From a virus: a stretch of DNA of 32,728 bases. Position 1 is the stretch's first letter; each line of letters starts with the position of its first letter. The notes below the pieces were generated by a model. The model saw only the letters and a program-made list of their open reading frames with translations. It did not search any database and was not told the origin of the DNA. The stretch is from the UHGV virus genome UHGV-2172388; one strand, 5' to 3'. Positions 7,220 to 30,901 of this stretch are shown here, one piece after another. A program made the translations under genes and the position numbers.

Positions 7220-7334
7220 AAAGAGTACGGATATGCGATGCGCATCACCGTATCGCCTCATCTGAACGCTGGATGCCCCTTCCCCACCAGAGTTAGTGTC
7301 TGACCCAACGAAAGAACCTACAGGGGAAAATACC

Positions 7335-7571
7335 ATGACTATTCAGGCCGCCAGAACCCGCCCAATGACCGATACCGCCCGCCGCATCAGAGACACCATA
7401 GTTAGCGTCGGCGTTCGCAGCACATGGCCGCTGAGCGATCTGGCCGACTACGCAGGTATAGAAATGGTTAACGCTGAATTTATTGTGACGCAGATGGAAC
7501 TGGCCGGTTACCTGAAGAAAACCCACTGGGGCCACTATATGTTAACCAGCGCGGGTATTGAGGCGGCATAA
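7335..7571 (+). CDS. Hypothetical small protein, possible winged-helix DNA-binding protein (accessory)
   Basis: 78-aa ORF from ATG 7335 with AGGGGAAAA upstream; not part of the P2 backbone; convergent with doc. Confidence 0.4.
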   Translation: MTIQAARTRPMTDTARRIRDTIVSVGVRSTWPLSDLADYAGIEMVNAEFIVTQMELAGYLKKTHWGHYMLTSAGIEAA

Positions 7572-7573
7572 TT

Positions 7574-7598
7574 AAAAACAGCCCGATCTGTCGGGCTG
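7574..7598 (-). terminator. Hairpin terminator between convergent genes (serves the doc transcript, possibly bidirectional)
   Basis: 8-bp stem CAGCCCGA/TCGGGCTG with 4-nt loop; A5 on the plus strand gives a T-run after the hairpin on the minus strand. Confidence 0.55.
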
Positions 7599-7603
7599 TA
7601 ACG

Positions 7604-7981
7604 TCAGGAAGCATTTACATCACTAAGGGTATAGAAAATATCGGCTAAATCATCCAGATTCAGCGTTCCCTCAGCCACATCCACCATAATATCTTCCAGC
7701 TTTTGTGTTCGCTTGAGGTTCACACCCTGCATATCAAGGTATGTCAACGCCGTCACCAGTGCCGTTCGCTTGTTGGCATCAGCAAAAACGTGCCCTCTGG
7801 CGATGGCAACCGCATAAGATGCGGCGATCTGGAAAATATCATTCATCTGCTCATACAGAATACGGTTATCCACCCGCGCCAGTGTTGCCTCGACCCGGCC
7901 AGCATCCTGATAACCAACCAATCCCGGCTCATGAGCAAGAATAAAATCGTGAATTCCAATCACCAAATGTGCATCAATCAT
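7604..7981 (-). CDS. doc: Doc-family toxin (Fic-fold kinase, death-on-curing)
   Basis: 125 aa; motif GHVFADANKRTAL matches the Doc/Fic signature HxFx(D/N)(A/G)NKR; overall layout resembles P1 Doc as recalled. Confidence 0.85.
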   Translation of the reverse strand: MIDAHLVIGIHDFILAHEPGLVGYQDAGRVEATLARVDNRILYEQMNDIFQIAASYAVAIARGHVFADANKRTALVTALTYLDMQGVNLKRTQKLEDIMVDVAEGTLNLDDLADIFYTLSDVNAS

Positions 7982-8166
7982 CGGTTAGCCAGCGCCTTAA
8001 TGACTTTGTTGTGTCTGGCATAAATACGTTCTGCCGACTTTTTAATCACACGCTCACCTTCCGGGCCGTCCAGTTTCATTTCGACGGGTACGAACTGCCC
8101 ACTCATACTGTCTCTTTTTACGACCTTGATACCGTATCGGCTGGCAGGACTGCTATTCTTCGCCAT
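7978..8166 (-). CDS. Putative Doc antitoxin, not Phd/YefM-like at the N-terminus (possibly AbrB/MazE-like), C-terminus ...NKVIKALANR
   Basis: 62-aa ORF, stop overlaps the doc start (ATGA); AGAGG RBS 10 nt upstream; C-terminal tail resembles the Doc-neutralising end of P1 Phd (...NKELVNR). Confidence 0.55.
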   Translation of the reverse strand: MAKNSSPASRYGIKVVKRDSMSGQFVPVEMKLDGPEGERVIKKSAERIYARHNKVIKALANR

Positions 8167-8212
8167 TATTTTTTACCTCTAATACTCTTTATTAAAAGTA
8201 TATACCTATCTG

Positions 8213-8392
8213 CTAATCTTTTGTTTCAATGCCTCGTGACTGAAGCTCTTTCCTGATAATTCGCTTAATCCACGCGGAAACAGAGGCATCACCATCAGCT
8301 TTAAGTGCCTGCTGAATTCCGGCCTCAAGAGCAGGATCTACTCGTAACGCGATTTGCTTACTGCCTTTGCCTTGAATAGAAATGGTTGACAC
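8213..8392 (-). CDS. Small ribbon-helix-helix-like protein (59 aa, GTG start), candidate regulator upstream of the antitoxin-doc pair
   Basis: Hand translation of the minus strand: VSTISIQGKGSKQIALRVDPALEAGIQQALKADGDASVSAWIKRIIRKELQSRGIETKD; AGGAG RBS 9 nt before GTG; below the 60-aa cutoff of the ORF track. Confidence 0.35.
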   Translation of the reverse strand: MSTISIQGKGSKQIALRVDPALEAGIQQALKADGDASVSAWIKRIIRKELQSRGIETKD

Positions 8393-8413
8393 TTGCTATA
8401 CTCCTGCTATATT
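8386..8413 (+). promoter_or_regulatory. Near-consensus sigma70 promoter TTGACA-16 nt-TATATT
   Basis: Direct reading; drives rightward toward ORFs 8527 and 8722. Confidence 0.45.
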
Positions 8414-8435
8414 TTCCTACAGTTAGTAAAGCAAG

Positions 8436-8455
8436 TGTATGACAACAGTCATACA
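8436..8455. promoter_or_regulatory. Perfect 8-4-8 palindrome TGTATGAC-AACA-GTCATACA (operator or leader hairpin)
   Basis: Direct reading; lies about 20-40 nt downstream of the -10 element. Confidence 0.45.
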
Positions 8456-8526
8456 AAAACAACGAAGCCCGCAGGTGCTACCAACACCAACGGGCCTCTG
8501 ACCACAACATTATTGAGGCTAATGCT

Positions 8527-8733
8527 ATGGCTACCGCTAATAGTAACATACGCGCACATTCAAAGCTCTACACCTTCCTGAACGCCCGTTCCAACCGCCT
8601 GCTGCGCGAGATCCAGCCATTGCGTCTGGTGTCCGTACTGGCAACAACAGAGATCGAGGCTCGCGACCTGCTGGCGGGTTTCCCGCTGGTATTTGTCTCC
8701 TGCAAGCCGCTGGAGGTGCGCCATGGTGCCTGA
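8527..8733 (+). CDS. Hypothetical protein (68 aa), accessory
   Basis: ORF with GAGG RBS; stop overlaps the next ORF start by 11 nt; no family recognised. Confidence 0.4.
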   Translation: MATANSNIRAHSKLYTFLNARSNRLLREIQPLRLVSVLATTEIEARDLLAGFPLVFVSCKPLEVRHGA

Positions 8734-9043
8734 AACCAACCTGCTTTCTTCCGAACTGGCCGATGTGATCCGCAAGCTGGATATTTCGAATCTCAACGCA
8801 GACGACACCCTGCAACTGGCCAACAGCAGCGAGGAGTGCTGCGCCGGATTGTGCCACGGCCTGCACTTTCTGGGTAAAACCTTCGTATCCTTCGCCGACA
8901 GCAACGTATTGGAGTTCTCACCGGAAAGCCTGTGCCAGTTAGGACACGGCCTGCTAGCCAGTGCACTGCTGATCCCGGCGCTGATCCAAATCCAGAAGTC
9001 CGCAGAACGGCAAATCATCAACACCGACACCGGCGAGGCATAA
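8722..9043 (+). CDS. Hypothetical protein (about 107 aa), accessory
   Basis: ATG 8722 (MVPETNLL...) overlapping the upstream ORF, suggesting translational coupling; no family recognised. Confidence 0.4.
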
Positions 9044-9058
9044 CCCCGCCAATCGCTC

Positions 9059-9087
9059 CCGCTTGTACTGCCCTCAGTTACAAGCGG
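9059..9087. promoter_or_regulatory. Late-promoter dyad CCGCTTGTA-N11-TACAAGCGG upstream of X and the lysis genes
   Basis: Perfect dyad; centre 84 nt upstream of the X ATG. Confidence 0.6.
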
Positions 9088-11186: not shown

Positions 11187-11619
11187 ACTACTGACCGCCA
11201 GTATCCCGCACTTACAACACAACCCGGACGCGCTGCGGGTCTTTATCAATAAGGGCCGGATCGTCGCCACCGCAGGGCGCAGCACCAGTTTTGAATACCA
11301 GTACACGCTGGAACTGTTGATCACCGACTACGCCGCCGATCCCGATACGCTGATGGTGCCGCTGGTCGGCTGGATGTCGCTTCACCAGCAGGAAGCCTTC
11401 GCCAACAGCGATCTGCGCCAGCAGGCATTTCAGTTTGAAGCCGAAGCCATCGACCACCAAAGTTACGATATCAGCATCAAGCTGGCGCTGACCGAGCGCG
11501 TCATTGTGCGCCCGCGCGACGGCGGGCTGGAAGCAAAGCACTGTAACGACCAGCAGCCAGAAAGCGGTTACAATGGCTGGGAAATCGCCTGTCGCGGTGA
11601 AACGATAGTGAGTACCTGA
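11161..11619 (+). CDS. R: Tail completion protein (P2 gpR-like)
   Basis: 152-aa ORF, synteny and recalled family similarity. Confidence 0.8.
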   Translation: MHKAQLIRELLTASIPHLQHNPDALRVFINKGRIVATAGRSTSFEYQYTLELLITDYAADPDTLMVPLVGWMSLHQQEAFANSDLRQQAFQFEAEAIDHQSYDISIKLALTERVIVRPRDGGLEAKHCNDQQPESGYNGWEIACRGETIVST

Positions 11620-12068
11620 TGAGCGACGACCTGCAACAACTCCACCGCTGGGCCGATGGCCTGCTTGCAAAGCTCTCCCCGGCAAGCCGAACCCAACTGG
11701 CGCGGGAAATCGCCCACAGCCTGCGTCAGTCGCAAAGCCAGCGGATAACCGCACAGAAAAACCCGGATGGCTCACCGTTCGCCCCCCGTAAGCCTCAGCT
11801 ACGCAGTAAAAAAGGAAAGATCCGCCGCCAGATGTTCCGTAAGCTGCGTACCGCACGCTATATGAAAGGGAAAGGCGATGGGCAGGGAGCAACCATTTCG
11901 TTTCTCAGCAGCGTTCGACATATGGCCGCCGTTCATCAGTATGGCCTGCGCGATCGGGTAAATCGCTACGGGTTGGAGGTGGATTACGCACAAAGGCAGT
12001 TGCTGGGATTTTCTCAGCAAGATTATTTACAAATTCAATCTATTATCATGCAATATTTAGCGGTGTAA
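11619..12068 (+). CDS. S: Tail completion / virion morphogenesis protein (P2 gpS-like), C-terminal about 25 codons AT-rich and atypical
   Basis: 149-aa ORF; TGATG overlap with the R stop; the 3' end lies in AT-rich DNA, suggesting the native end was replaced by an insertion. Confidence 0.75.
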   Translation: MSDDLQQLHRWADGLLAKLSPASRTQLAREIAHSLRQSQSQRITAQKNPDGSPFAPRKPQLRSKKGKIRRQMFRKLRTARYMKGKGDGQGATISFLSSVRHMAAVHQYGLRDRVNRYGLEVDYAQRQLLGFSQQDYLQIQSIIMQYLAV

Positions 12069-12107
12069 TAACAAACTTTCTCATATTCAAAAGGATTACT
12101 ACCTGCC

Positions 12108-12563
12108 ATGCCTAATCAACATACTGTTGAAGAATCAACGCGAGCCGCTATCAATGAACTTTTGCGTAACGATGCTCATTTGCTGATTACAGATAATAGT
12201 GAACGGGCTATCGCCAACCGCTTGGGTAGATATCTGGAAAATAACTTCCCGGAATGGGATGTAGACTGTGAATACAATAGAAATGGGGATGCAGTTAAAA
12301 GATTAATTTACGCAGTTGAACCTAACGGAAATGCAAGCGAACGTGATGTTATCCCGGATATTATCGTTCACCACCGAGGAACCGATGAAAACCTGATTGC
12401 GTTCGAACTGAAAAAATCGACCAACAACCAAAGAAATGGCAGAGAAAAAGACCTCCTCAAGCTGCAGGCGTTTAAAGAACAATTGGGTTATAAATATGCC
12501 GTTTTTGTGTCTCTTAAAACAGGCTGTGCGAACCCTGAAGTTACCGAAATCCACTGGATTTAA
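12108..12563 (+). CDS. Moron: PD-(D/E)xK nuclease-fold-like hypothetical protein
   Basis: 151 aa in AT-rich DNA between S and V; putative motifs ...IPDIIVHH... and ...IAFELKK... read as PD and ExK; family assigned by motif only. Confidence 0.5.
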   Translation: MPNQHTVEESTRAAINELLRNDAHLLITDNSERAIANRLGRYLENNFPEWDVDCEYNRNGDAVKRLIYAVEPNGNASERDVIPDIIVHHRGTDENLIAFELKKSTNNQRNGREKDLLKLQAFKEQLGYKYAVFVSLKTGCANPEVTEIHWI

Positions 12564-12591
12564 CCGCTTGTAAAAATCCACAATACAAGCG
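12564..12591. promoter_or_regulatory. Late-promoter dyad CCGCTTGTA-N11-TACAAGCG upstream of V
   Basis: Perfect dyad starting immediately after the moron stop codon. Confidence 0.6.
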
Positions 12592-12633
12592 TTAAAGCTA
12601 CCATTGTCATGCCAGAATACCAATGATTCCGGC

Positions 12634-13233
12634 ATGAGCGACGCAAACCACCCAGCCAACCTCGCCGAACTGCACCGGCGCATAGAGAACCTGATCCGTA
12701 CCGGCACCGTTGAAGAGGTGAAGGGCGATCGAGTACGCATTCACACTGGTGAACTGACCACCAACTGGATACCATGGCTGACGCTACGCGCCGGTGATGC
12801 CCGGACGTGGTGGCGGCCATCAACAGGCGAGCAGGTGTTACTGCTCTGTTTAAGCGGAGAGTTAACCACCGCCGTGGCGCTTCCGGCCATTTACTCTGAC
12901 GCCAGCCCCGCCCCGCTGCTGGATGAACAGGTTCACCATAGCGTTTACCCCGATGGTGCGGTGATTGAATACGATCCGCGCTCCAGCGCGTTAAAAGCGA
13001 CCGGCATCAAAACCGCACTGGTCGAAGCCAGCACCCGCGTCACGCTGGATACACCGCTCGTCGTCTGCACTCAGCATCTGGAAACCGCCACGCTGTCGGT
13101 TAAAAAAGGCGGCACGCTTAAAGGCGCTTACACCCACAGCGGCGGCAGCTTTACCTCTAACGGCGTCACCGTCCATACCCATACGCATACAGGCGTGGAG
13201 CGCGGGGGTAGCAATACCGGAGGACCGCAGTAA
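12634..13233 (+). CDS. V: Baseplate spike/assembly protein (P2 gpV-like)
   Basis: ATG 12634 (MSDANHPANLAELHRRI...) preferred over the track's TTG at 12604; motifs VIEYDP, KATGIKTA, TRVTLDTP, HTHTH match recalled gpV. Confidence 0.85.
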   Translation: MSDANHPANLAELHRRIENLIRTGTVEEVKGDRVRIHTGELTTNWIPWLTLRAGDARTWWRPSTGEQVLLLCLSGELTTAVALPAIYSDASPAPLLDEQVHHSVYPDGAVIEYDPRSSALKATGIKTALVEASTRVTLDTPLVVCTQHLETATLSVKKGGTLKGAYTHSGGSFTSNGVTVHTHTHTGVERGGSNTGGPQ

Positions 13234-16606: not shown

Positions 16607-17310
16607 GCACATTCGCATTTTCCGACGAACCGCAAACCCTGCGCATCTTTAACTACGCGGCAGACACTCAGGAATTTATCGGCGTCAGCGACGCCTATAT
16701 CGCCCCCAACACCGGCTTACCGGAATGCTGTACCACTATCGAGCCTCCCGAATGCCAGAGCGGCTTTGCCCTGACATTCAACGGAGAAACATGGCTTGCG
16801 GTAGAAGATCATCGCGGTAAAACCGCGTTTGATACCGATGCGGGCAGTGAGGTACAGCTTCATCATCTGGGGCCATTGCCGGATAACGTCACTCTGCTGA
16901 AGCCCGATAACGCCTTTGTCCGTTGGGACGGCAAACGCTGGCGGCCCGATATCGAAAAAGCCCGACAGGCAAAGGTGGCAGAAATAAAGCAGTATCGAGA
17001 TCGAATCACCGCCGACTACATCATCATCGATAATCACCATTTCCACAGCGACGCTAACAGCCGCATCCAGCAGCTCTCGCTCACCAAAATGGGCGTGGCT
17101 AAACAAATACCGGCAGGCTTAATGTGGCAGACCAAAAATCACAACCTGATTGAACTGACCAACGAAATCGCCGCCCGGTTTGAAACCGAAACAATGGCGC
17201 ACGATATGCGCCTGTTCGCCGCTGCCCAGCAGCATATTGCCGCCATTGAAGCATTGACGGAGGTGCAGGCGGTTATGGGTTACGACTACTCGTCAGGATG
17301 GCAACCATGA
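16603..17310 (+). CDS. G: Tail fiber assembly chaperone (P2 gpG-like)
   Basis: 235 aa directly after H with ATGA overlap; synteny. Confidence 0.8.
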
Positions 17311-17765
17311 GTCAGGTTTACGCGGCGTTCTACCGTGGCCGGGCTGAACGCTTTTTCAGCCTTGCCCGGCTCTCCGACTGGCTGACTCGACAGGTCACGC
17401 GCGGCCCTTACTCTCACTGCGAACTGGTCGAACGCCAGCCGGATGGCCTGTTTATCTGTTACTCATCATCGGTACGGGATAAAGGCGTGCGCAGCAAACG
17501 AATGCCGCTGCCGATTGAGAAATGGGATTTACTCCCGATCAACGCCGATCCGCTGGCACTGGAAACCTTTTTTCGTCAGCATGACGATAAAGGTTACGAC
17601 TGGCTGGGCGCCATGGGTTTTGTGTTACTCAGTCAGGGCAAACAGGAACGCCTGTTTTGCAGCGAGTTCTGCGCCGAATTTCTGCACCTGCGCGATAGCT
17701 GGCGCTGGTCGCCTAATCTGCTGTATGCGTTGGTCAGCAGTCGGTCTGGAAAATTGACAATATGA
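17307..17765 (+). CDS. Hypothetical protein (about 152 aa) at the G/FI accessory locus, translationally coupled to the downstream methyltransferase
   Basis: ATG 17307 overlaps the G stop; its stop overlaps the dam start; no family recognised. Confidence 0.45.
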   Translation: MSQVYAAFYRGRAERFFSLARLSDWLTRQVTRGPYSHCELVERQPDGLFICYSSSVRDKGVRSKRMPLPIEKWDLLPINADPLALETFFRQHDDKGYDWLGAMGFVLLSQGKQERLFCSEFCAEFLHLRDSWRWSPNLLYALVSSRSGKLTI

Positions 17766-18520
17766 ATACGTTACCCGTTATTCCGTGGATCGGCGGCAAA
17801 CGCCGACTGGCGAAACACATCCTGCCGCTGTTTCCTGAACACCGCTGTTACGTCGAGCCATTTTGCGGAGCGGCGGCGCTGTTCTTTATGAAACGCCCCG
17901 CTCAGGCCGAGGTGCTGAATGATATCAACGGTGACGTTACCAACCTCTACCGGGTACTCCAGCACCATTTAGAAGAGTTTGTCCGCCAGTTTAAATGGTC
18001 GCTGGTCAGCCGCGAAATGTACCGCTGGCTCCAGATCACCCCGGAAGAAACGCTGACCGACATCCAGCGCGCGGCGCGCTTCTACTATCTGCAAAAGCTG
18101 GCGTTCGGCGGCAAGGTGGAAAGCCGCACGTTCGGTACCGCCACCACCTCACCGCCACGCCTGAACCTGCTGCGTATGGAGGAAGATTTATCCGCCGCCC
18201 ATCTGCGGCTGGCGCGCGTCTGTATTGAAAATCTGGACTGGGCCGACTGTATTCGCCGCTATGACCGCCCGCATACCCTGTTCTACTGCGACCCGCCATA
18301 CTGGAAAACCGAAGGCTACGGCGTACCGTTTGGCCTTGAGCAGTACCAGCGTATGGCAGAGCTGGCGCGCACCATGCAGGGCCGGATGATTATCTCGGTT
18401 AACGACATCCCGGAAATGCGCGATATCTTCCACGGCCTGACATTCTCAACGGTAGGGATTCGCTATACCGTAGGCGGAAAGCCAGCCAGCGCTACATCAG
18501 AACTGATTATCCTGAATTAA
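17762..18520 (+). CDS. dam: DNA N6-adenine methyltransferase (Dam-like, D12 class), orphan
   Basis: 252 aa; N-terminal WIGGKRRL and SAM-binding EPFCGAAAL; catalytic FYCDPPY (DPPY) motif. Confidence 0.85.
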   Translation: MNTLPVIPWIGGKRRLAKHILPLFPEHRCYVEPFCGAAALFFMKRPAQAEVLNDINGDVTNLYRVLQHHLEEFVRQFKWSLVSREMYRWLQITPEETLTDIQRAARFYYLQKLAFGGKVESRTFGTATTSPPRLNLLRMEEDLSAAHLRLARVCIENLDWADCIRRYDRPHTLFYCDPPYWKTEGYGVPFGLEQYQRMAELARTMQGRMIISVNDIPEMRDIFHGLTFSTVGIRYTVGGKPASATSELIILN

Positions 18521-24051: not shown

Positions 24052-25154
24052 CGATGTTAAACGCACTCTTAAACGCCCAGCCGCAGCCGGAGTACAGCGT
24101 GGTGCTGAACGGTAAGGACATTACGCGGAATCTGGACAACCGCTTAATCAGCCTGCGTATCACCGACAACCGGGGCTTTGAGGCCGACGAACTGCAGCTC
24201 GAACTGGACGACAGCGACGGCCTGCTGGCGTTTCCGGCAAAGGGCGAAAAAATAACGGTTTCTCTGGGCTGGAAGGGTGACGGCGTGATGCACCAGAATG
24301 TCTTCACCGTGGACGAACTGGAGCACAGCGGCGCACCGGACGTACTCAGTCTCCGCGCCCGCAGCGCCGATTTCCGCGATTCGCTGAACGTTAAACGGGA
24401 ACAGAGCTACCATGATGTGACGCTGGGCGCGATTGTGCAAACCGTGGCGGCACGTCATAAGCTGGAATCAACCGTCAGCGGCGAGCTGGCTGGGATCGCC
24501 ATTGAGCACGTTGACCAGACTAACGAGTCTGATGCGTCCTTCCTAACCCGGCTGGCGCAAATGCACGGCGCTATCGCCTGCGTGAAAAATGATGCTCTGC
24601 TGCTGATGCCGACAGGTTCCGGTAAAAGCGCCAGCGGCAAGCCGCTGCCGGTCGCAACCATTAACCGCGAGGACGGCGACAGCCACCGGTTCAGCATCGC
24701 GGACAGGGAAGCCTATACCGGCGTAACGGCCTACTGGCTGGATACGCGGCAGGCTAAAAAGCAGTCAACTGACGTGAAGCGCAAGACACGGAAAAATCTT
24801 CCGCAAACGCAACCAACAGAATCGCCGACGTCAGACACCTCATTCAACGCCGATAACGTGATGGTCGGCGAAGAGGGAAATATCAAGGTGCTGCGCCACA
24901 CCTATGCCAACAAAAATAACGCCTACAGAGCGGCAAAAAGCGCGTGGGAGCTATTACAGCGAGGCGCGGCAACGTTCAGCCTGAATCTTGCGCGCGGACG
25001 GCCCGATTTGTTCCCGGAACTGTCGGTGCAGGTGAAGGGGTTTAAGGCGGAGATTGACGGCACCGCGTGGGTGATTACGCGGTGCGTGCATACGTTGGAT
25101 AACAGCAGTGGGTATGGGACGGCGGTGGAGTGTGAGTTGGGGCTGGAAGATTAA
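24048..25154 (+). CDS. D: Tail protein / late control protein D (P2 gpD-like)
   Basis: 368 aa; ATGA overlap with U; synteny. Confidence 0.85.
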   Translation: MTMLNALLNAQPQPEYSVVLNGKDITRNLDNRLISLRITDNRGFEADELQLELDDSDGLLAFPAKGEKITVSLGWKGDGVMHQNVFTVDELEHSGAPDVLSLRARSADFRDSLNVKREQSYHDVTLGAIVQTVAARHKLESTVSGELAGIAIEHVDQTNESDASFLTRLAQMHGAIACVKNDALLLMPTGSGKSASGKPLPVATINREDGDSHRFSIADREAYTGVTAYWLDTRQAKKQSTDVKRKTRKNLPQTQPTESPTSDTSFNADNVMVGEEGNIKVLRHTYANKNNAYRAAKSAWELLQRGAATFSLNLARGRPDLFPELSVQVKGFKAEIDGTAWVITRCVHTLDNSSGYGTAVECELGLED

Positions 25155-26152
25155 TATCCAATACCGCTACTTACACCAACATCACTTAAAATCATTCTCA
25201 ATTCGTTCAAATATCCAGGTAACGGCCATTCTTGCTGTAATTTATTACTGTCTTCATTTATTGCCAGCCAGTAAGTAAAAATGACCACTGGCTGCGCAAA
25301 AAAAAGATTGGCAGTAGCCCTTTGTTGGATTTTATATGATATATATTTTTTCTTATCAAGAAGGTCGATTAGATTAGTCAAAAGATCTTCTTGTATAAAC
25401 GACCTATACTCATCTAAAAAACAATAATTTATTTTATCTTCCTGATTTAAATACTGTCTCCCAATTTTATTTATATAAAAATCTTTTAACTCCTTTAAAA
25501 AATCATTTCTTGGTTTATTAGTATCACATAAAAGCCGCATTGTATTACAAAATAATTCATCTGTTGTTTCCATCAAAGCCATACTACGCGCAATTTGGCG
25601 CTCCGCTTTTTTCGGTACTGGGCCAACAGGTTTATAAACGCTATCATGAACTAATTCTGCATACGCATGCTGCAATAATGTTCTAATTTGTACTTCACAG
25701 CACATATCAGTTGTAATATTAACTCCCGATATAACGCTATTTATCTTTGGCCTTATTTCAAAATGCTTTGATTGATAATCAAATAGTTTAGGGTTTACCT
25801 CTATTTCATCCTGATAATCTTTAGAAACAACAGCTATCCATTGTTCATTATTCTGAATGATTTTACAGATTGTCTCAATATCTTCAGAAAGTAAAACGAC
25901 AAAACGAACGCCAACGAGATCCGTCATCTGCTGAACAGGGTTGTTATAACCTTTACGACCAACCTTCCCTAATGCGGACTCGATACCTTTAACTCTCGGA
26001 GTGGGTGGTACCTTGATGAAGAGCTGGGCGGCCCCTTCACCAAGTTGTTCAATCAAAGCCGCATTGATTTCAGACGCAATATGTTTACCCCATGCTTCAT
26101 AAGCAGCATGGTTTTCAACCAGATAACGTCTAAAATCCTCTATACTCATCAT
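25151..26152 (-). CDS. RelA/SpoT-family nucleotidyltransferase (small alarmone synthetase / toxSAS-like) with about 140-aa C-terminal extension of unknown fold
   Basis: 333 aa in AT-rich DNA; synthetase-domain motifs RVKGIESALGKVGRKG, DLVGVRFVV, CEVQIRTLLQHAYAELVHDSVYK; ATGA overlap with the upstream gene. Confidence 0.7.
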   Translation of the reverse strand: MMSIEDFRRYLVENHAAYEAWGKHIASEINAALIEQLGEGAAQLFIKVPPTPRVKGIESALGKVGRKGYNNPVQQMTDLVGVRFVVLLSEDIETICKIIQNNEQWIAVVSKDYQDEIEVNPKLFDYQSKHFEIRPKINSVISGVNITTDMCCEVQIRTLLQHAYAELVHDSVYKPVGPVPKKAERQIARSMALMETTDELFCNTMRLLCDTNKPRNDFLKELKDFYINKIGRQYLNQEDKINYCFLDEYRSFIQEDLLTNLIDLLDKKKYISYKIQQRATANLFFAQPVVIFTYWLAINEDSNKLQQEWPLPGYLNELRMILSDVGVSSGIGY

Positions 26153-27237
26153 TCTTGACTTTTCAACCGCCCTTTGACTTTAAGTGTAGTTGACTCATCA
26201 TCATCTGTTTGTTCAATCTGTACCAGTTCTTTTACTTGATCTGGTGGTATGGATATCCATACATCGCTTGTAAACACTAATTTACTTCTACGACGAAGCT
26301 TTTTCTTAATATAATCAGTATCTTTAGACACTGCATTCTGCGGAAAACCTTTTTGAGCCATAAATGACTGATAGCTCGTCTGTAATTCTTGAGGAAGATG
26401 TTCCGTAGCAAACGAAGCGGTACTCAAAGTTGCTTTCTGACTTCTCAGTTCAGAACGTAATGACTCGTGTAAATCAAACTTAGTTTCTTCATCAACTGGA
26501 GCCTGATTAATGAAATTTCGAGTATGTTCAAAAAAATCCTGCGTCAATTTCTTGGAGGATTTTTCGATCCCCATTCCAAGAAAAACACTGTAAAAATACC
26601 CCGCAGCATTTTTAGTTTCCGTCGATGTCATCAAGTGATCAAATAAAAATGAACGATAATATTGCGTATCACAACGACCATCAATCAATTCATGGCCTGA
26701 CTCACACTCAATCAACACTCCTATTTTATAAAGCCGCTGAGTTGGTGTAAGTAATAAGTCAGCAATATACTCCATCGCTATTTTCTCTGGGGTATCATTG
26801 GTCCGAAATCCGTTTTGCATTTCAGCACGCAGTACAGCAAAGAATGGGCAGGCTTGTTCACCAATTTTTCCCGTAATGATTACTAACACACCACCGGAAA
26901 CCTTCCCCGCACTATATTGAGCTTCTGTTAACTTATGCGCCAATCGCTTAGATACGTTAATAAATGATTCGCCTTCAACATGTAGTACAGACGTTGTCAG
27001 TGCAAAAAAACTATCATCACCGGTATCAGTGATAGACATTTCAATGCCATGAGATTTATTACCTAAGGCTTCTGTTATACGAACCTGTAGTGCATCCAAA
27101 GCATCTTGTTCTAACGTTATTAACTGATTACTTAACTTAGGTGGAACCATTTGCTTATCGGGAGACCTTGGGAAGATTCGATGAGCAATAATTCTTTCAA
27201 TCATCACCCCCTCAAAAGAAAAGCCGACATTTGCCAT
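26149..27237 (-). CDS. NdpA/YejK-like (NA37 nucleoid-associated protein family) hypothetical protein
   Basis: 362 aa in AT-rich DNA; by-eye resemblance to E. coli YejK in several blocks (IERIIAHRI vs INQIALHQL; GG-hydrophobic block); assignment from memory. Confidence 0.45.
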   Translation of the reverse strand: MANVGFSFEGVMIERIIAHRIFPRSPDKQMVPPKLSNQLITLEQDALDALQVRITEALGNKSHGIEMSITDTGDDSFFALTTSVLHVEGESFINVSKRLAHKLTEAQYSAGKVSGGVLVIITGKIGEQACPFFAVLRAEMQNGFRTNDTPEKIAMEYIADLLLTPTQRLYKIGVLIECESGHELIDGRCDTQYYRSFLFDHLMTSTETKNAAGYFYSVFLGMGIEKSSKKLTQDFFEHTRNFINQAPVDEETKFDLHESLRSELRSQKATLSTASFATEHLPQELQTSYQSFMAQKGFPQNAVSKDTDYIKKKLRRRSKLVFTSDVWISIPPDQVKELVQIEQTDDDESTTLKVKGRLKSQE

Positions 27238-27268
27238 AATTACTCCCTAATAAGCTGAAATTAATAAA

Positions 27269-27604
27269 TCATTGTACTTTTCGACAATTCATCGGTTGCG
27301 CAAGCGCAGCGCTAACCGTGTCAAGGGTGGACTGGTGTTCTGGCGTAGCAGAACGATAGTTTTCCACCAACACACTCTCTTTATTGGACAACGTAACCAC
27401 AGGCGTGCGGTTGCCTGTTAGAACATACAGAACATCAACTCCCGCTGCCGCTATGCCAGCAAGATAGTCACTGTCCGGCTTGCGCAACCCATTCTCATAG
27501 TTGCTTTGTGCGTTTTTCTTCACGCCCCCAAGTTGTCCAAAGCCGTCTTGATCAAGTCCAAGTCGGATACGTTCTTCCTTCAAACGGATGCCAAATTCTT
27601 TCAT
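27269..27604 (-). CDS. XRE-family helix-turn-helix repressor (candidate prophage immunity repressor)
   Basis: 111 aa; HTH_3 pattern IRLKEERIRLGLDQ...YENGLRKP...LAGIAAAGVDVLYVLTG; leftward from the switch region; GC content like the phage backbone. Confidence 0.65.
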   Translation of the reverse strand: MKEFGIRLKEERIRLGLDQDGFGQLGGVKKNAQSNYENGLRKPDSDYLAGIAAAGVDVLYVLTGNRTPVVTLSNKESVLVENYRSATPEHQSTLDTVSAALAQPMNCRKVQ

Positions 27605-28246: not shown

Positions 28247-30901
28247 ATGCAACCACAACTTCATCAGGAAATTACGCGGCGACTACTGGCCGACTTTTCC
28301 TTTAAAGAACAGGGCGACTGGCTGCGGCAGGGCATCTGCCCGGACTGCCAGAAAAAAGAGCTGTACACCAATGCCATCAGCCCGTGGGTATTGCGCTGCG
28401 GTCGCCTGAATAAATGCAATGCCGAAATCCACATCAAAGATATGTACCCGGATCTGTTTGAAAGCTGGTCAGACAGATATCCCCCAACCCCGGAAAACCC
28501 ACAGGCCGCCGCCGATGCCTACCTGCGCGAGATGCGCGGCTTTGACCTTTCGCTGATCCGTGACTGTTACACTCAAGAGAACTACTACGACCCACGGCGT
28601 GATATCGGTTCAGCGACGGTACGTTTCCCGCTGGCTGACGGCGTGTGGTGGGAGCGGATCGTTGACCGCCCACAGCGTTTCGGCGATCGCAAAGCCAACT
28701 TTCACGGCGCTTACAGCGGGCTATGGTGGCTATTGCCAACGCTGAAGCTGGAAGAACAGCAGGAGATCTGGCTGGTTGAGGGCATTTTTGACGCTATCGC
28801 CCTGCACCACCACGGCATTGCCGCCGTTTCCCTGATGACCTGTAACAACTATCCGGCGCAGGCGTTAAGCCAACTGGCCGCGCTGTTCGTGGATAAAAAG
28901 CGCCCTTTACTGGTCTGGGCGCTGGATAACGACAAGGCGGGCATGAGCTATACCCGGCGATGGGTAAAGCGCAGCCGGGACGAAGGCTGGAGCGCAGCCG
29001 CCGCACAGACGCCGCATTCCCGCAGCAAGCTGGACTGGAACGATTTGCACCAACGCGACCGGCTTAACCCAGAGCTAGTGAAGAAATACCGCTACTACGG
29101 CTCTCTGCTGATCGCCACCTCTCCCGCCGCCAAAGCCCTGCTGATGCACGAACAGACAGAGCGTAAAGAGTTCCACTTCGAGTTTGACAGCCGCCTGTTC
29201 TGGTTCAAGCTGGATATTGACCGCTATATGCGGGTGCATGAAAGTATCTCATTCTCCAATGACGACCTGAGCGAAGAAGAGCTGAAACAGAAGGCGCTGA
29301 AAGAGTCGTCCGCCGTGGTGGAGATCGCCAACTGCTACCCGACCGCCCTCTACTATCAGGCCAACACCATCACCGACGAAAGCTGGTATTACTTTCGCAT
29401 TAACTTCCCGGACGACACGCCGCCGATAAAAAACACCTTCACCGGCTCCCAACTTTCCAGCGGCTCAGAATTCAAAAAGCGCCTGCTGCATATCGCGCAG
29501 GGCGGCATCTTCACCGGCACCAGTCAGCAGTTAGATAAGTTGCTGCTCAAGCAGCTTCCCAAAATCAAAACTGTCCAGACCACTGATTTTATCGGCTACA
29601 GCAAAGAATACCGCGCTTACGTGTTCAACGATCTGGCCGTTCGCGATGGTCGGCTGTACACACTCAACGAAGAAGACTTCTTCGACATGGGCAAACTCAG
29701 CCTTAAAAGCCTGAACCAGTCGGTCAGCCTGACGCTGAACGACAATTTAAAACAGATGGACAGCCAGTGGCCCCAGCTACTCTGGCAGGCGTTTGGCGCA
29801 AAGGGCTTTGTGGCGCTGGCGTTCTGGCTTGGGACGATGTTTGCCGAACAGATCCGCGACAAGCACAAGAGCTTTCCGTTTCTGGAAATCGTTGGCGAAC
29901 CCGGCAGCGGCAAAACCACGCTGATAGAGTTTCTCTGGAAGCTGTTAGGCCGACGCGACTATGAAGGTTTCGATCCGTCTAAATCAACGCTGGCCGCCCG
30001 CGCGCGCAACTTTGCGCAGGTGGCGAACATGCCGGTGGTGCTGATCGAGGGTGACCGTAATCAGGAGGGTGCAAAGCAACGCGGCTTTGATTGGGAAGAG
30101 CTAAAAACCGCCTATAACGGGCGGTCAGTGCGGTCTCGCGGTCTGCGTAACAGCGGTAACGAGACCTATGAACCTCCGTTCCGGGGCTCGATTGTGATTG
30201 CGCAAAACGCCGACGTTAGCGCCTCTAACCCGGTGCTGGAACGTATTATTCACCTGTACACCGACCGCAGCGGCCAGAATACTCAGACCAAGGTCGCTGC
30301 CGAGCAGCTCGAACGCCTGCCGGTGGAACAGCTTTCCGGCTTTATGCTGAAAGCAGCGCTGGCGGAACAGGCCGTGCTGGAGTGCGTCAACCGGCAGATC
30401 CCGCTATACGAGCAGCAGCTTCACGCCCACCCCGATATTCGCCATATCCGCATCATTAAAAACCACGCCCAGCTTATGGCGCTGCTCGACGCGCTGGCGC
30501 TGGTTATTCCGGTCACGAAGGAGCAGCTACAGGCAACCAGAGAAATGTTTATCCGCCTCAGTCTGGAGCGCCAGCAGGCCATCAGCGCCGACCACCCTCT
30601 GGTGCAGGAGTTCTGGGATATTTTCGACTTCCTCGATGGCGACGACGAACCACAGCTCAACCACTCGCGCGATGAACAGCTTATCGCCGTCAACCTTAAC
30701 CACTTTATTCAACTGGCCACCGAACGTCGCCAGCAGATCCCACCAGTCAGCGATTTAAAGCGGGTACTGAAAACCAGCCGTACCCACAAGTTTATTGAAG
30801 TCAGAACGGTTAACAGCGGCATCAACGCTGAATTTAACCGCCGTTACCCAGCCGCATCGCGCCACCCGGCGACGGTGAAGTGTTGGGTTTTTCAACGATA
30901 A
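28247..30901 (+). CDS. Replication primase-helicase (N-terminal zinc ribbon, TOPRIM domain, C-terminal P-loop NTPase), P4 alpha-like
   Basis: 884 aa; CPDCQ...C..LNKC zinc ribbon; TOPRIM-like LVEGIFDAIALHHHG; Walker A GEPGSGKTT. Confidence 0.75.
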   Translation: MQPQLHQEITRRLLADFSFKEQGDWLRQGICPDCQKKELYTNAISPWVLRCGRLNKCNAEIHIKDMYPDLFESWSDRYPPTPENPQAAADAYLREMRGFDLSLIRDCYTQENYYDPRRDIGSATVRFPLADGVWWERIVDRPQRFGDRKANFHGAYSGLWWLLPTLKLEEQQEIWLVEGIFDAIALHHHGIAAVSLMTCNNYPAQALSQLAALFVDKKRPLLVWALDNDKAGMSYTRRWVKRSRDEGWSAAAAQTPHSRSKLDWNDLHQRDRLNPELVKKYRYYGSLLIATSPAAKALLMHEQTERKEFHFEFDSRLFWFKLDIDRYMRVHESISFSNDDLSEEELKQKALKESSAVVEIANCYPTALYYQANTITDESWYYFRINFPDDTPPIKNTFTGSQLSSGSEFKKRLLHIAQGGIFTGTSQQLDKLLLKQLPKIKTVQTTDFIGYSKEYRAYVFNDLAVRDGRLYTLNEEDFFDMGKLSLKSLNQSVSLTLNDNLKQMDSQWPQLLWQAFGAKGFVALAFWLGTMFAEQIRDKHKSFPFLEIVGEPGSGKTTLIEFLWKLLGRRDYEGFDPSKSTLAARARNFAQVANMPVVLIEGDRNQEGAKQRGFDWEELKTAYNGRSVRSRGLRNSGNETYEPPFRGSIVIAQNADVSASNPVLERIIHLYTDRSGQNTQTKVAAEQLERLPVEQLSGFMLKAALAEQAVLECVNRQIPLYEQQLHAHPDIRHIRIIKNHAQLMALLDALALVIPVTKEQLQATREMFIRLSLERQQAISADHPLVQEFWDIFDFLDGDDEPQLNHSRDEQLIAVNLNHFIQLATERRQQIPPVSDLKRVLKTSRTHKFIEVRTVNSGINAEFNRRYPAASRHPATVKCWVFQR

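Follow-up and report, generated by a model that had tools for sequence, protein, structure and literature searches.

A solo gene for a 151-aa protein with a PD-(D/E)xK nuclease fold, which matches the A component of the published anti-phage system PD-λ-3, was located between the tail genes S and V of a P2-like prophage. The best overall explanation, which is favoured here with some reserve, is a prophage-borne anti-phage nuclease moron of the PD-Lambda-3_A type that consists of this gene alone. The descriptive part of the explanation, namely a single-gene moron with a PD-(D/E)xK fold that belongs to the PD-Lambda-3_A family and occupies the slot equivalent to P2 orf30, can be put forward with high confidence, and the anti-phage role of the gene is about evenly balanced. 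A prophage-carried anti-phage accessory gene is most likely, rather than a new kind of element, on account of the relation to PD-Lambda-3_A and the lone place of the gene in an S-V slot whose cargo is swapped in and out.

The prophage and its 151-aa ORF

The window, i.e. the whole 32,728-nt stretch of DNA that was analysed (UHGV virus genome UHGV-2172388), represents a P2-like prophage in its entirety, with genes found for portal, terminase, capsid, lysis, tail, Ogr-type late control and integrase functions. The neighbours of the 151-aa ORF were assigned by Pfam as gpR, gpS and gpV (Table 1), and RefSeq gives a 199/200-aa product for gpV at the identical locus. As the original prediction had described, the ORF lies in AT-rich DNA between S and V, the GC content being 0.35-0.43 over ~11950-12600 versus 0.57-0.62 in the flanks. 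An antisense ORF (12303-12740, minus strand) was rejected as spurious; it extends across the cassette boundary as well as pV, and no family was matched by it.

Table 1. Features of the S-V region, with window coordinates
Feature	Position	Strand	Evidence
gpS (tail completion / virion morphogenesis)	11619-12068	+	Pfam Phage_tail_S, E=1.1e-38, 1-147 of 148
Exchangeable low-GC cassette in the S-V (orf30-equivalent) slot	12014-12614 (601 bp)	+	blastn homology breaks against sister prophages
Candidate weak sigma-70 promoter, TTTACA-17-TGCAAT	12026-12054	+	sequence reading, inside the gpS 3′ end
151-aa ORF, PD-(D/E)xK nuclease fold, PD-Lambda-3_A family	12108-12563	+	
pV late-promoter activator (Ogr-type) dyad, GCTTGTA-N11-TACAAGC	12566-12590	+	
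gpV baseplate spike	12634-13233 (true ATG 12634)	+	Pfam Phage_base_V, Phage_spike, Apex

[quoted passage not shown] Identical copies were found on at least 196 contigs of Escherichia coli, Citrobacter freundii, Salmonella enterica and Klebsiella quasipneumoniae, all of them at the S-V position of one and the same prophage type. Among 5,426 complete E. coli genomes, one encodes the identical protein and four carry the prophage lineage. Megablast of 11600-12700 against the phage collection returned zero matches, and tblastn of the ORF against the same collection returned a single match (32%) on an unannotated faecal phage contig.

Nuclease fold and active site

A restriction-endonuclease-like fold had been read from the motifs IPDIIVHH and IAFELKK. 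Both are present in the protein, and structure prediction bore this reading out: the AlphaFold2 model (pLDDT 94, pTM 0.88) displays the canonical alpha-beta-beta-beta-alpha-beta order, and Foldseek gave a weak agreement with PD-(D/E)xK at the superfamily level (TM ~0.45). In Pfam, the protein obtained only a sub-threshold match to Hjc (PF01870; E=0.039, 14.3 bits against a cutoff of 21.1), with BsuBI_PstI at E=0.12. PHROG likewise gave a sub-threshold Hjc match (PHROG 6591, E=0.023), no family was matched in NCBIfam, and a PDB profile search by sequence yielded nothing meaningful (E>0.2) and no close solved relative. An identity as Hjc was rejected because both Hjc matches lie below significance.

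Alignment of 84 homologues with 33-83% identity showed that E32, D53, E55, D84, I86, H88, N95 and E100 are invariant, and that conservation reaches at least 98% at P83, K102 and K103 and at least 90% at R90, D115, K118 and Y128. Since P83-D84 and E100-x-K102 are invariant or nearly so, the PD...ExK motif constitutes the conserved core of the family. The protein thus combines the core fold of PD-(D/E)xK nucleases with conservation of both D...(D/E)xK and the helix-1 glutamate (E32). Judged from the alignment, E32, D53/E55, P83-D84 and E100-x-K102 are the candidate catalytic residues of a putative nuclease. A dN/dS of 0.25 between the two nuclease alleles described below indicates purifying selection.

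Relation to PD-λ-3

The PADLOC model PD-Lambda-3_A (PDLC03986) was matched with E=1.3e-38 over residues 3-151 and model positions 12-159 of 159, and membership in the A family is defined by this profile match rather than by a direct percent identity to the ECOR28 protein. PD-λ-3 (Vassallo et al. 2022) derives from E. coli ECOR28 (QOXN01000003, 22616-25374), was selected against lambda-vir and shows abortive-infection behaviour (PMC9519451 supplement); it also serves as an Abi control (PMC13190303). Its A protein bears a weak HHpred similarity to PD-(D/E)xK at residues ~91-147, its B protein combines AbiJ_NTD3 with Hypoth_Ymh/HEPN, and its C protein is a WD40 beta-propeller (PMC9519451 supplement). 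Abi protection against lambda has been published solely for the three-gene clone (PMC9519451 supplement, PMC13190303), and the AbiJ/HEPN protein could be the real effector of PD-λ-3.

PADLOC found neither PD-Lambda-3 B nor C among the 40 window ORFs and no defence match for gpS or gpV, and B and C were likewise not found in the fully annotated identical prophage of E. coli GMF054. The 601-bp cassette by itself excludes the C component, since a gene of ~480 aa does not fit. The protein therefore belongs to the A family, and the locus does not qualify as a PD-λ-3 system because B and C are missing. The product would be a Mg2+-dependent DNA endonuclease of the superinfection-exclusion or abortive-infection type, and would act without the AbiJ/HEPN and WD40 partners of PD-λ-3. 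Against the defence reading, the gene lacks an obvious self/non-self discrimination or immunity partner, and neither a convincing sigma-70 promoter nor a terminator sets it apart from the late operons.

The original prediction had offered phage exclusion or anti-defence as possible roles. The first was the better guess, consistent with the PD-Lambda-3_A family and with the presence of AbiTii and HicAB in the same slot of sister prophages, and the second gained no support. Both the family membership in a published defence system and the identity of the position with the orf30 locus had been missed.

Family distribution and neighbouring genes

Homologues numbered 90 by sequence search and 1,274 by profile search; they are ~150 aa long, carry no Pfam domain and reach many bacterial phyla as well as archaea, as judged from the sequence search and the best 120 of the 1,274 profile matches. 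Distant homologues match the same PADLOC PD-Lambda-3_A model. The family is overwhelmingly chromosomal and rare in viral contigs (4 IMG/VR loci), and many genomic homologues sit among housekeeping genes. With many members in such surroundings and few in viral contigs, the family is not exclusively defence-associated. One member, a 258-aa protein from a Methanothrix MAG (P0040), has a HicB-like antitoxin domain (PF15919) fused to its N-terminus and retains the E, DVDCEY, PDIIVHH and ExK elements; HicAB is also an alternative S-V occupant in the lineage of the window prophage.

Partner genes were sought among the neighbours in 80 species-representative genomes by blastp clustering, Pfam and PADLOC. 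No conserved partner, HEPN/Ymh included, emerged from these 80 genomes, and unannotated downstream genes of ~340 aa at several loci neither clustered nor belonged to any family. A solo architecture is the norm for the PD-Lambda-3_A family.

The only recurrent immediate neighbours were Type I restriction-modification (R-M) subunits (Methylase_S in 8 and N6_Mtase in 6 of 126 neighbours). About 10 of the 80 genomic homologues (~10%) are embedded in Type I R-M operons with the arrangement HsdM-X-HsdS-HsdR (L014, L045, L049, L056, L058, L068, L081, L085, L090 and L091) and are often translationally coupled there, frequently with 4-nt overlaps. C5 methylase/Vsr, Cap4 nuclease and toxin-antitoxin genes were occasional neighbours elsewhere. 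This coupled arrangement, together with the C5 methylase and Vsr neighbours in several loci, speaks for a restriction-like or R-M-accessory nuclease, which would either cleave according to modification state or be a latent back-up held by a host R-M system or methylase in the manner of PrrC. PrrC is an ABC-ATPase-fused anticodon RNase that sits in the EcoprrI hsd operon and is triggered once a phage inhibits restriction. However, ~90% of the family lies outside R-M operons, the family is strongly conserved across phyla, unlike sequence-specific Type II enzymes, and the window prophage has no R-M partner adjacent to the gene, its Dam methyltransferase being unlinked. A split R-M system that would join the nuclease with this Dam was rejected: Dam is lineage-wide and is kept in a sister prophage that bears AbiTii, and it is therefore not the partner of the nuclease. 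Altogether, a restriction-like or R-M-accessory function of the window gene is improbable, and an anti-phage nuclease that acts alone is the preferred reading.

The S-V slot as a variable locus

In P2 (AF063097), the interval between S and V holds a putative O-operon terminator, the non-essential orf30 (261 aa, minus strand) and then the pV activator site. The earlier statement that P2 has S directly followed by V is thus incorrect for P2 itself, and it does fit Wphi, in which V follows S directly across a tight 66-bp junction. The proposed horizontal acquisition of the nuclease gene as an accessory was upheld, in that the gene is missing at the S-V position in most P2-like phages and is not one of their core genes.

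A slot survey covered 59 IMG/VR loci that encode relatives of the window gpV and also have S. The junction measured at most 200 bp in 24 of the 59, and cargo of 275-3076 bp was present in the other 35. Median GC was 0.42 for the cargo versus 0.54 for the locus across the survey, and the largest cargo ORF lay on the minus strand in 22 of the 35 loci and on the plus strand in 13. Much of the cargo was of the defence or toxin-antitoxin kind, with AbiTii, PtuA/AriA-type ATPases, EcoO109I endonuclease plus C5 methylase, Dam, HicAB and RelE-type modules among the finds, next to several DUFs. From these cargo types, the S-V slot behaves as a defence/toxin-antitoxin hotspot.

The general idea of P2-like defence hotspots is already established. 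The orf30 locus, TO and Z/fun are the three usual sites of horizontally acquired genes in P2-like phages (PMC3091744; see also PMC6823313). Only the cos-adjacent hotspot is covered by Rousset 2022; Vassallo 2022 adds Z/fun, a 2024 preprint describes the cos-adjacent and Z/fun hotspots and a third next to cI, and a 2026 NAR survey lists minor hotspots 'within the tail genes' and downstream of GpL (PMC13586616). The S-V slot is not singled out in Rousset 2022, Vassallo 2022, the 2024 preprint or PMC13586616.

Other intervals of the prophage also carry variable or accessory genes. The gpL-gpX slot (7296-9084) contains a Fic/Doc-family toxin gene (7604-7981, minus strand) and small ORFs, followed by its own late-promoter dyad (9062-9084); sister prophages carry RelE/ParE with an HTH protein (L184) or Gp49 with HTH_37 (L181) there, and the slot agrees with the 'downstream of GpL' hotspot of PMC13586616. 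The G-to-FI slot, equivalent to Z/fun (17298-18520), encodes an unannotated 155-aa ORF and a D12-class Dam methyltransferase (17762-18520; PADLOC MTase_II, E=3.7e-114), both of which are kept in sister prophages whatever their S-V cargo. On the minus strand between gpD and the HTH repressor (25151-27604), a RelA_SpoT-domain protein (25151-26152), which might be a small-alarmone-synthetase toxin, is accompanied by an NA37 nucleoid-associated protein (26149-27237). The prophage of E. coli GMF054 contains DUF6037, NA37 and a 418-aa hypothetical protein in this interval instead; considering that this prophage otherwise looks identical, the gpD-repressor interval represents another variable slot. 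Just past window position 1, the GMF054 genome (L185, 38290-41519) holds the cos-adjacent, portal-side hotspot with genes for two DUF262-domain proteins, possible candidates for GmrSD-like Type IV restriction. Weaker PADLOC matches across the window (PDC-S33, 1e-13; PDC-M59B, 4e-8; RmrA, 2e-6; RT_UG29/RTasDnaG-like; PD-Lambda-5_B, 2e-15) probably stem from Dam, the Toprim primase (28247-30901) and the RelA_SpoT/NA37 genes.

Promoters and expression

The sequence CTTGTA-N11-TACAAG occurs at four window sites (4055, 9062, 12567 and 18533) where 0.04 are expected by chance, and each of the four dyads precedes a block of late genes. The dyad at 12567 is centred 56 nt from the V ATG, compared with 55.5 nt between the centre of the annotated pV activator site and the V start in P2, where the V-side reference point of this distance coincides with the transcription start given in the annotation. 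The identical E. coli prophage has an annotated Ogr/Delta-like zinc-finger gene. The four-site count, the P2-like spacing and the Ogr/Delta-like gene identify the element next to the ORF as a late-promoter dyad, and the ORF stop codon (TAA, 12561-12563) abuts it at a distance of 2 nt, just as first noticed. The hairpin of the dyad was rejected as an intrinsic terminator because no U-tract follows it.

An own promoter of the moron had also been proposed. The hexamers TTTACA and TGCAAT with their 17-nt spacer do exist, and a sigma-70 scan called no plus-strand promoter; the element fails the scan because of the G at position 2 of the -10 hexamer. The element lies in a 40-nt run (12019-12058) that is perfectly conserved relative to an 83%-identical allele, with ~18% divergence in both flanks of the run (P ~0.03), which is suggestive only as support for a possible promoter. 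In the lysogen, where the gene is presumably expressed, low-level transcription would start from this weak promoter within the cassette. In lytic growth, expression would arise by read-through of the late X-to-S transcript, and such read-through from the 9062 promoter is likely, since no intrinsic terminator was detected either upstream of the ORF as far as S or downstream of it as far as pV.

The orientation shared with the late genes, the 39-nt gap after the S stop codon, the missing terminator and the position downstream of the 9062 late promoter would also suit a lytic-cycle accessory, late co-transcribed and acting on host or competitor DNA or on a host defence, by which the lysogen is not protected. 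Nevertheless, the minus-strand cargo in 22 of the 35 loci shows that the slot does not require late co-expression, and P2 orf30 is on the minus strand too. Moreover, the sister cargo AbiTii or HicAB belongs to lysogen-expressed module types, members of the family are mainly chromosomal and seldom occur in phages, and no precedent was found for a PD-(D/E)xK protein in anti-defence. A purely lytic function is accordingly quite improbable, and the reading as an anti-phage nuclease that serves the lysogen is retained.

Cassette limits and exchange

Three sister prophages from complete E. coli genomes are 95-97% identical to the window on both sides of the S-V slot. Their blastn homology ends at 12013 and resumes at 12615, and the absence of homology in between defines the exchangeable unit. 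It includes the last 18 gpS codons, the nuclease gene and the pV dyad with its core promoter. In the sisters, the corresponding interval encodes either an AbiTii-domain protein of 301 aa (in strains L725 and CEC15) or HicA/HicB (in strain 24A16CRGN010).

The insert had been thought to replace the gpS C-terminus and to end at the dyad. The end of gpS does lie in the AT-rich segment, with 18 codons rather than ~25, yet a replacement by foreign sequence is not supported: protein alignment showed that the gpS 3′ end on the cassette (12014-12068) encodes a divergent yet homologous allele, and the C-terminal pattern LLGFS..D...I...I..L is common to the sisters, P2 and Wphi. The right edge lies beyond the dyad, which together with the core promoter is inside the exchanged segment, and every cassette retains CTTGTA-N11-TACAAG despite differing surrounding bases. 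The sequence comparison indicates that P2-like phages swap the cassettes through homologous recombination, which takes place in S and in the V 5′ region. The cassette would then pass between related P2-like phages through recombination within S and just upstream of V.

An 83%-identical nuclease allele occupies the S-V slot of a related prophage (L181). All 25 substitutions between the two alleles fall in residues 2-73; at the DNA level, the 5′ half is ~20% diverged, whereas 12319-12700, which spans the 3′ half and the pV promoter, is 100% identical. The nuclease gene itself is therefore mosaic, and the mosaic alleles imply a recent recombination endpoint inside it. At the other end of the cassette, a stable hairpin CAUGCCAGAAU...AUUCCGGCAUG (12607-12637) pairs the V start codon region, with a cassette-specific left arm and a right arm from the conserved backbone. 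The region 12555-12640 folds with z = -4.5, and the hairpin may affect V translation.

A free-standing homing-type endonuclease, or a selfish cassette that invades empty S-V junctions and co-converts its flanks, would likewise be wedged between conserved genes, be exchanged along with the S 3′ end and the pV region, and could leave a mosaic gene whose 3′ half is identical between alleles. Such an origin is very unlikely, for the non-nuclease cargo AbiTii and HicAB has the same breakpoints at 12013 and 12615, and the great majority of the family resides on chromosomes, in diverse surroundings and in different phyla, with few members in phages. A functionless, decaying remnant of a three-gene PD-λ-3 locus, to which the missing B and C partners might point, is largely refuted and scarcely credible, given the intact ORF with all catalytic residues kept, the dN/dS of 0.25, the identical protein on at least 196 contigs of four genera, the solo state as the family norm, and a 601-bp cassette without room for, or trace of, B/C remnants.

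Implications

The fold and the protein family were known before, as were the moron concept and the variable locus. Modestly new are the solo A-type gene, the defence-type cargo of the S-V slot and the minority of the family inside Type I R-M operons. A wider proposal is advanced only tentatively: PD-Lambda-3_A proteins may be a widespread, autonomous, HEPN-free nuclease immunity module of a single gene, of which ~10% would be PrrC-like back-up effectors of R-M systems, and the S-V slot may be a third, under-appreciated defence hotspot that shuttles them together with their own pV promoter allele. Protection of lysogens by the solo gene would make an autonomous minimal defence module of the PD-λ-3 nuclease component, would assign a function to more than 1,200 unannotated bacterial and archaeal proteins, some of them R-M-embedded, and would place the S-V (orf30) slot among the P2 hotspots worth mining for new systems. 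The present locus would not be called by PADLOC and DefenseFinder, whose rules demand partner genes, and solo A-type genes are thus systematically overlooked. If the gene does not protect, PD-λ-3 A would be a passenger or a partner-dependent component, which would be useful for the curation of defence databases.

Comparison with known systems

The A protein of PD-λ-3 (~159 aa) resembles the window protein in its weak PD-(D/E)xK signature at an equivalent position and in its origin from E. coli mobile DNA. PD-λ-3 is a 2.8-kb locus of the three proteins A, B and C, whereas the window has A alone in a 601-bp cassette. At the level of the fold, the protein is also similar to 3ijm, a REase-like fold protein of Spirosoma, to Hjc resolvases and to Cas4/SSO0001, with 11-20% identity; a sequence-level relation to them was not found in the PDB profile search or Pfam. 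What sets the window protein apart from 3ijm, Hjc and Cas4 is an additional invariant motif, WDVDCEY, together with a beta-hairpin inserted at residues 65-80. PrrC/RloC-type nucleases share with ~10% of the family the internal position in Type I R-M operons; this likeness would be one of analogy, since the PrrC fold differs from that of the family and the window copy has no R-M neighbour.

As for the locus, P2 orf30 and the window cargo are found in the same place, from the end of the S operon to the pV activator site, and both are low-GC, non-essential horizontal cargo. P2 orf30 encodes an unrelated 261-aa protein on the opposite strand after a terminator, whereas the window cargo points in the direction of the late genes, and a terminator was not detected there. 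The published defence hotspots of P2 and P4 resemble the S-V slot in being small, with high turnover, located between conserved phage genes and filled with diverse defence and toxin-antitoxin cargo. Their published emphasis is on the cos-adjacent (gpA-portal), Z/fun and GpL-downstream positions, whereas the cassette of the window resides between S and V.
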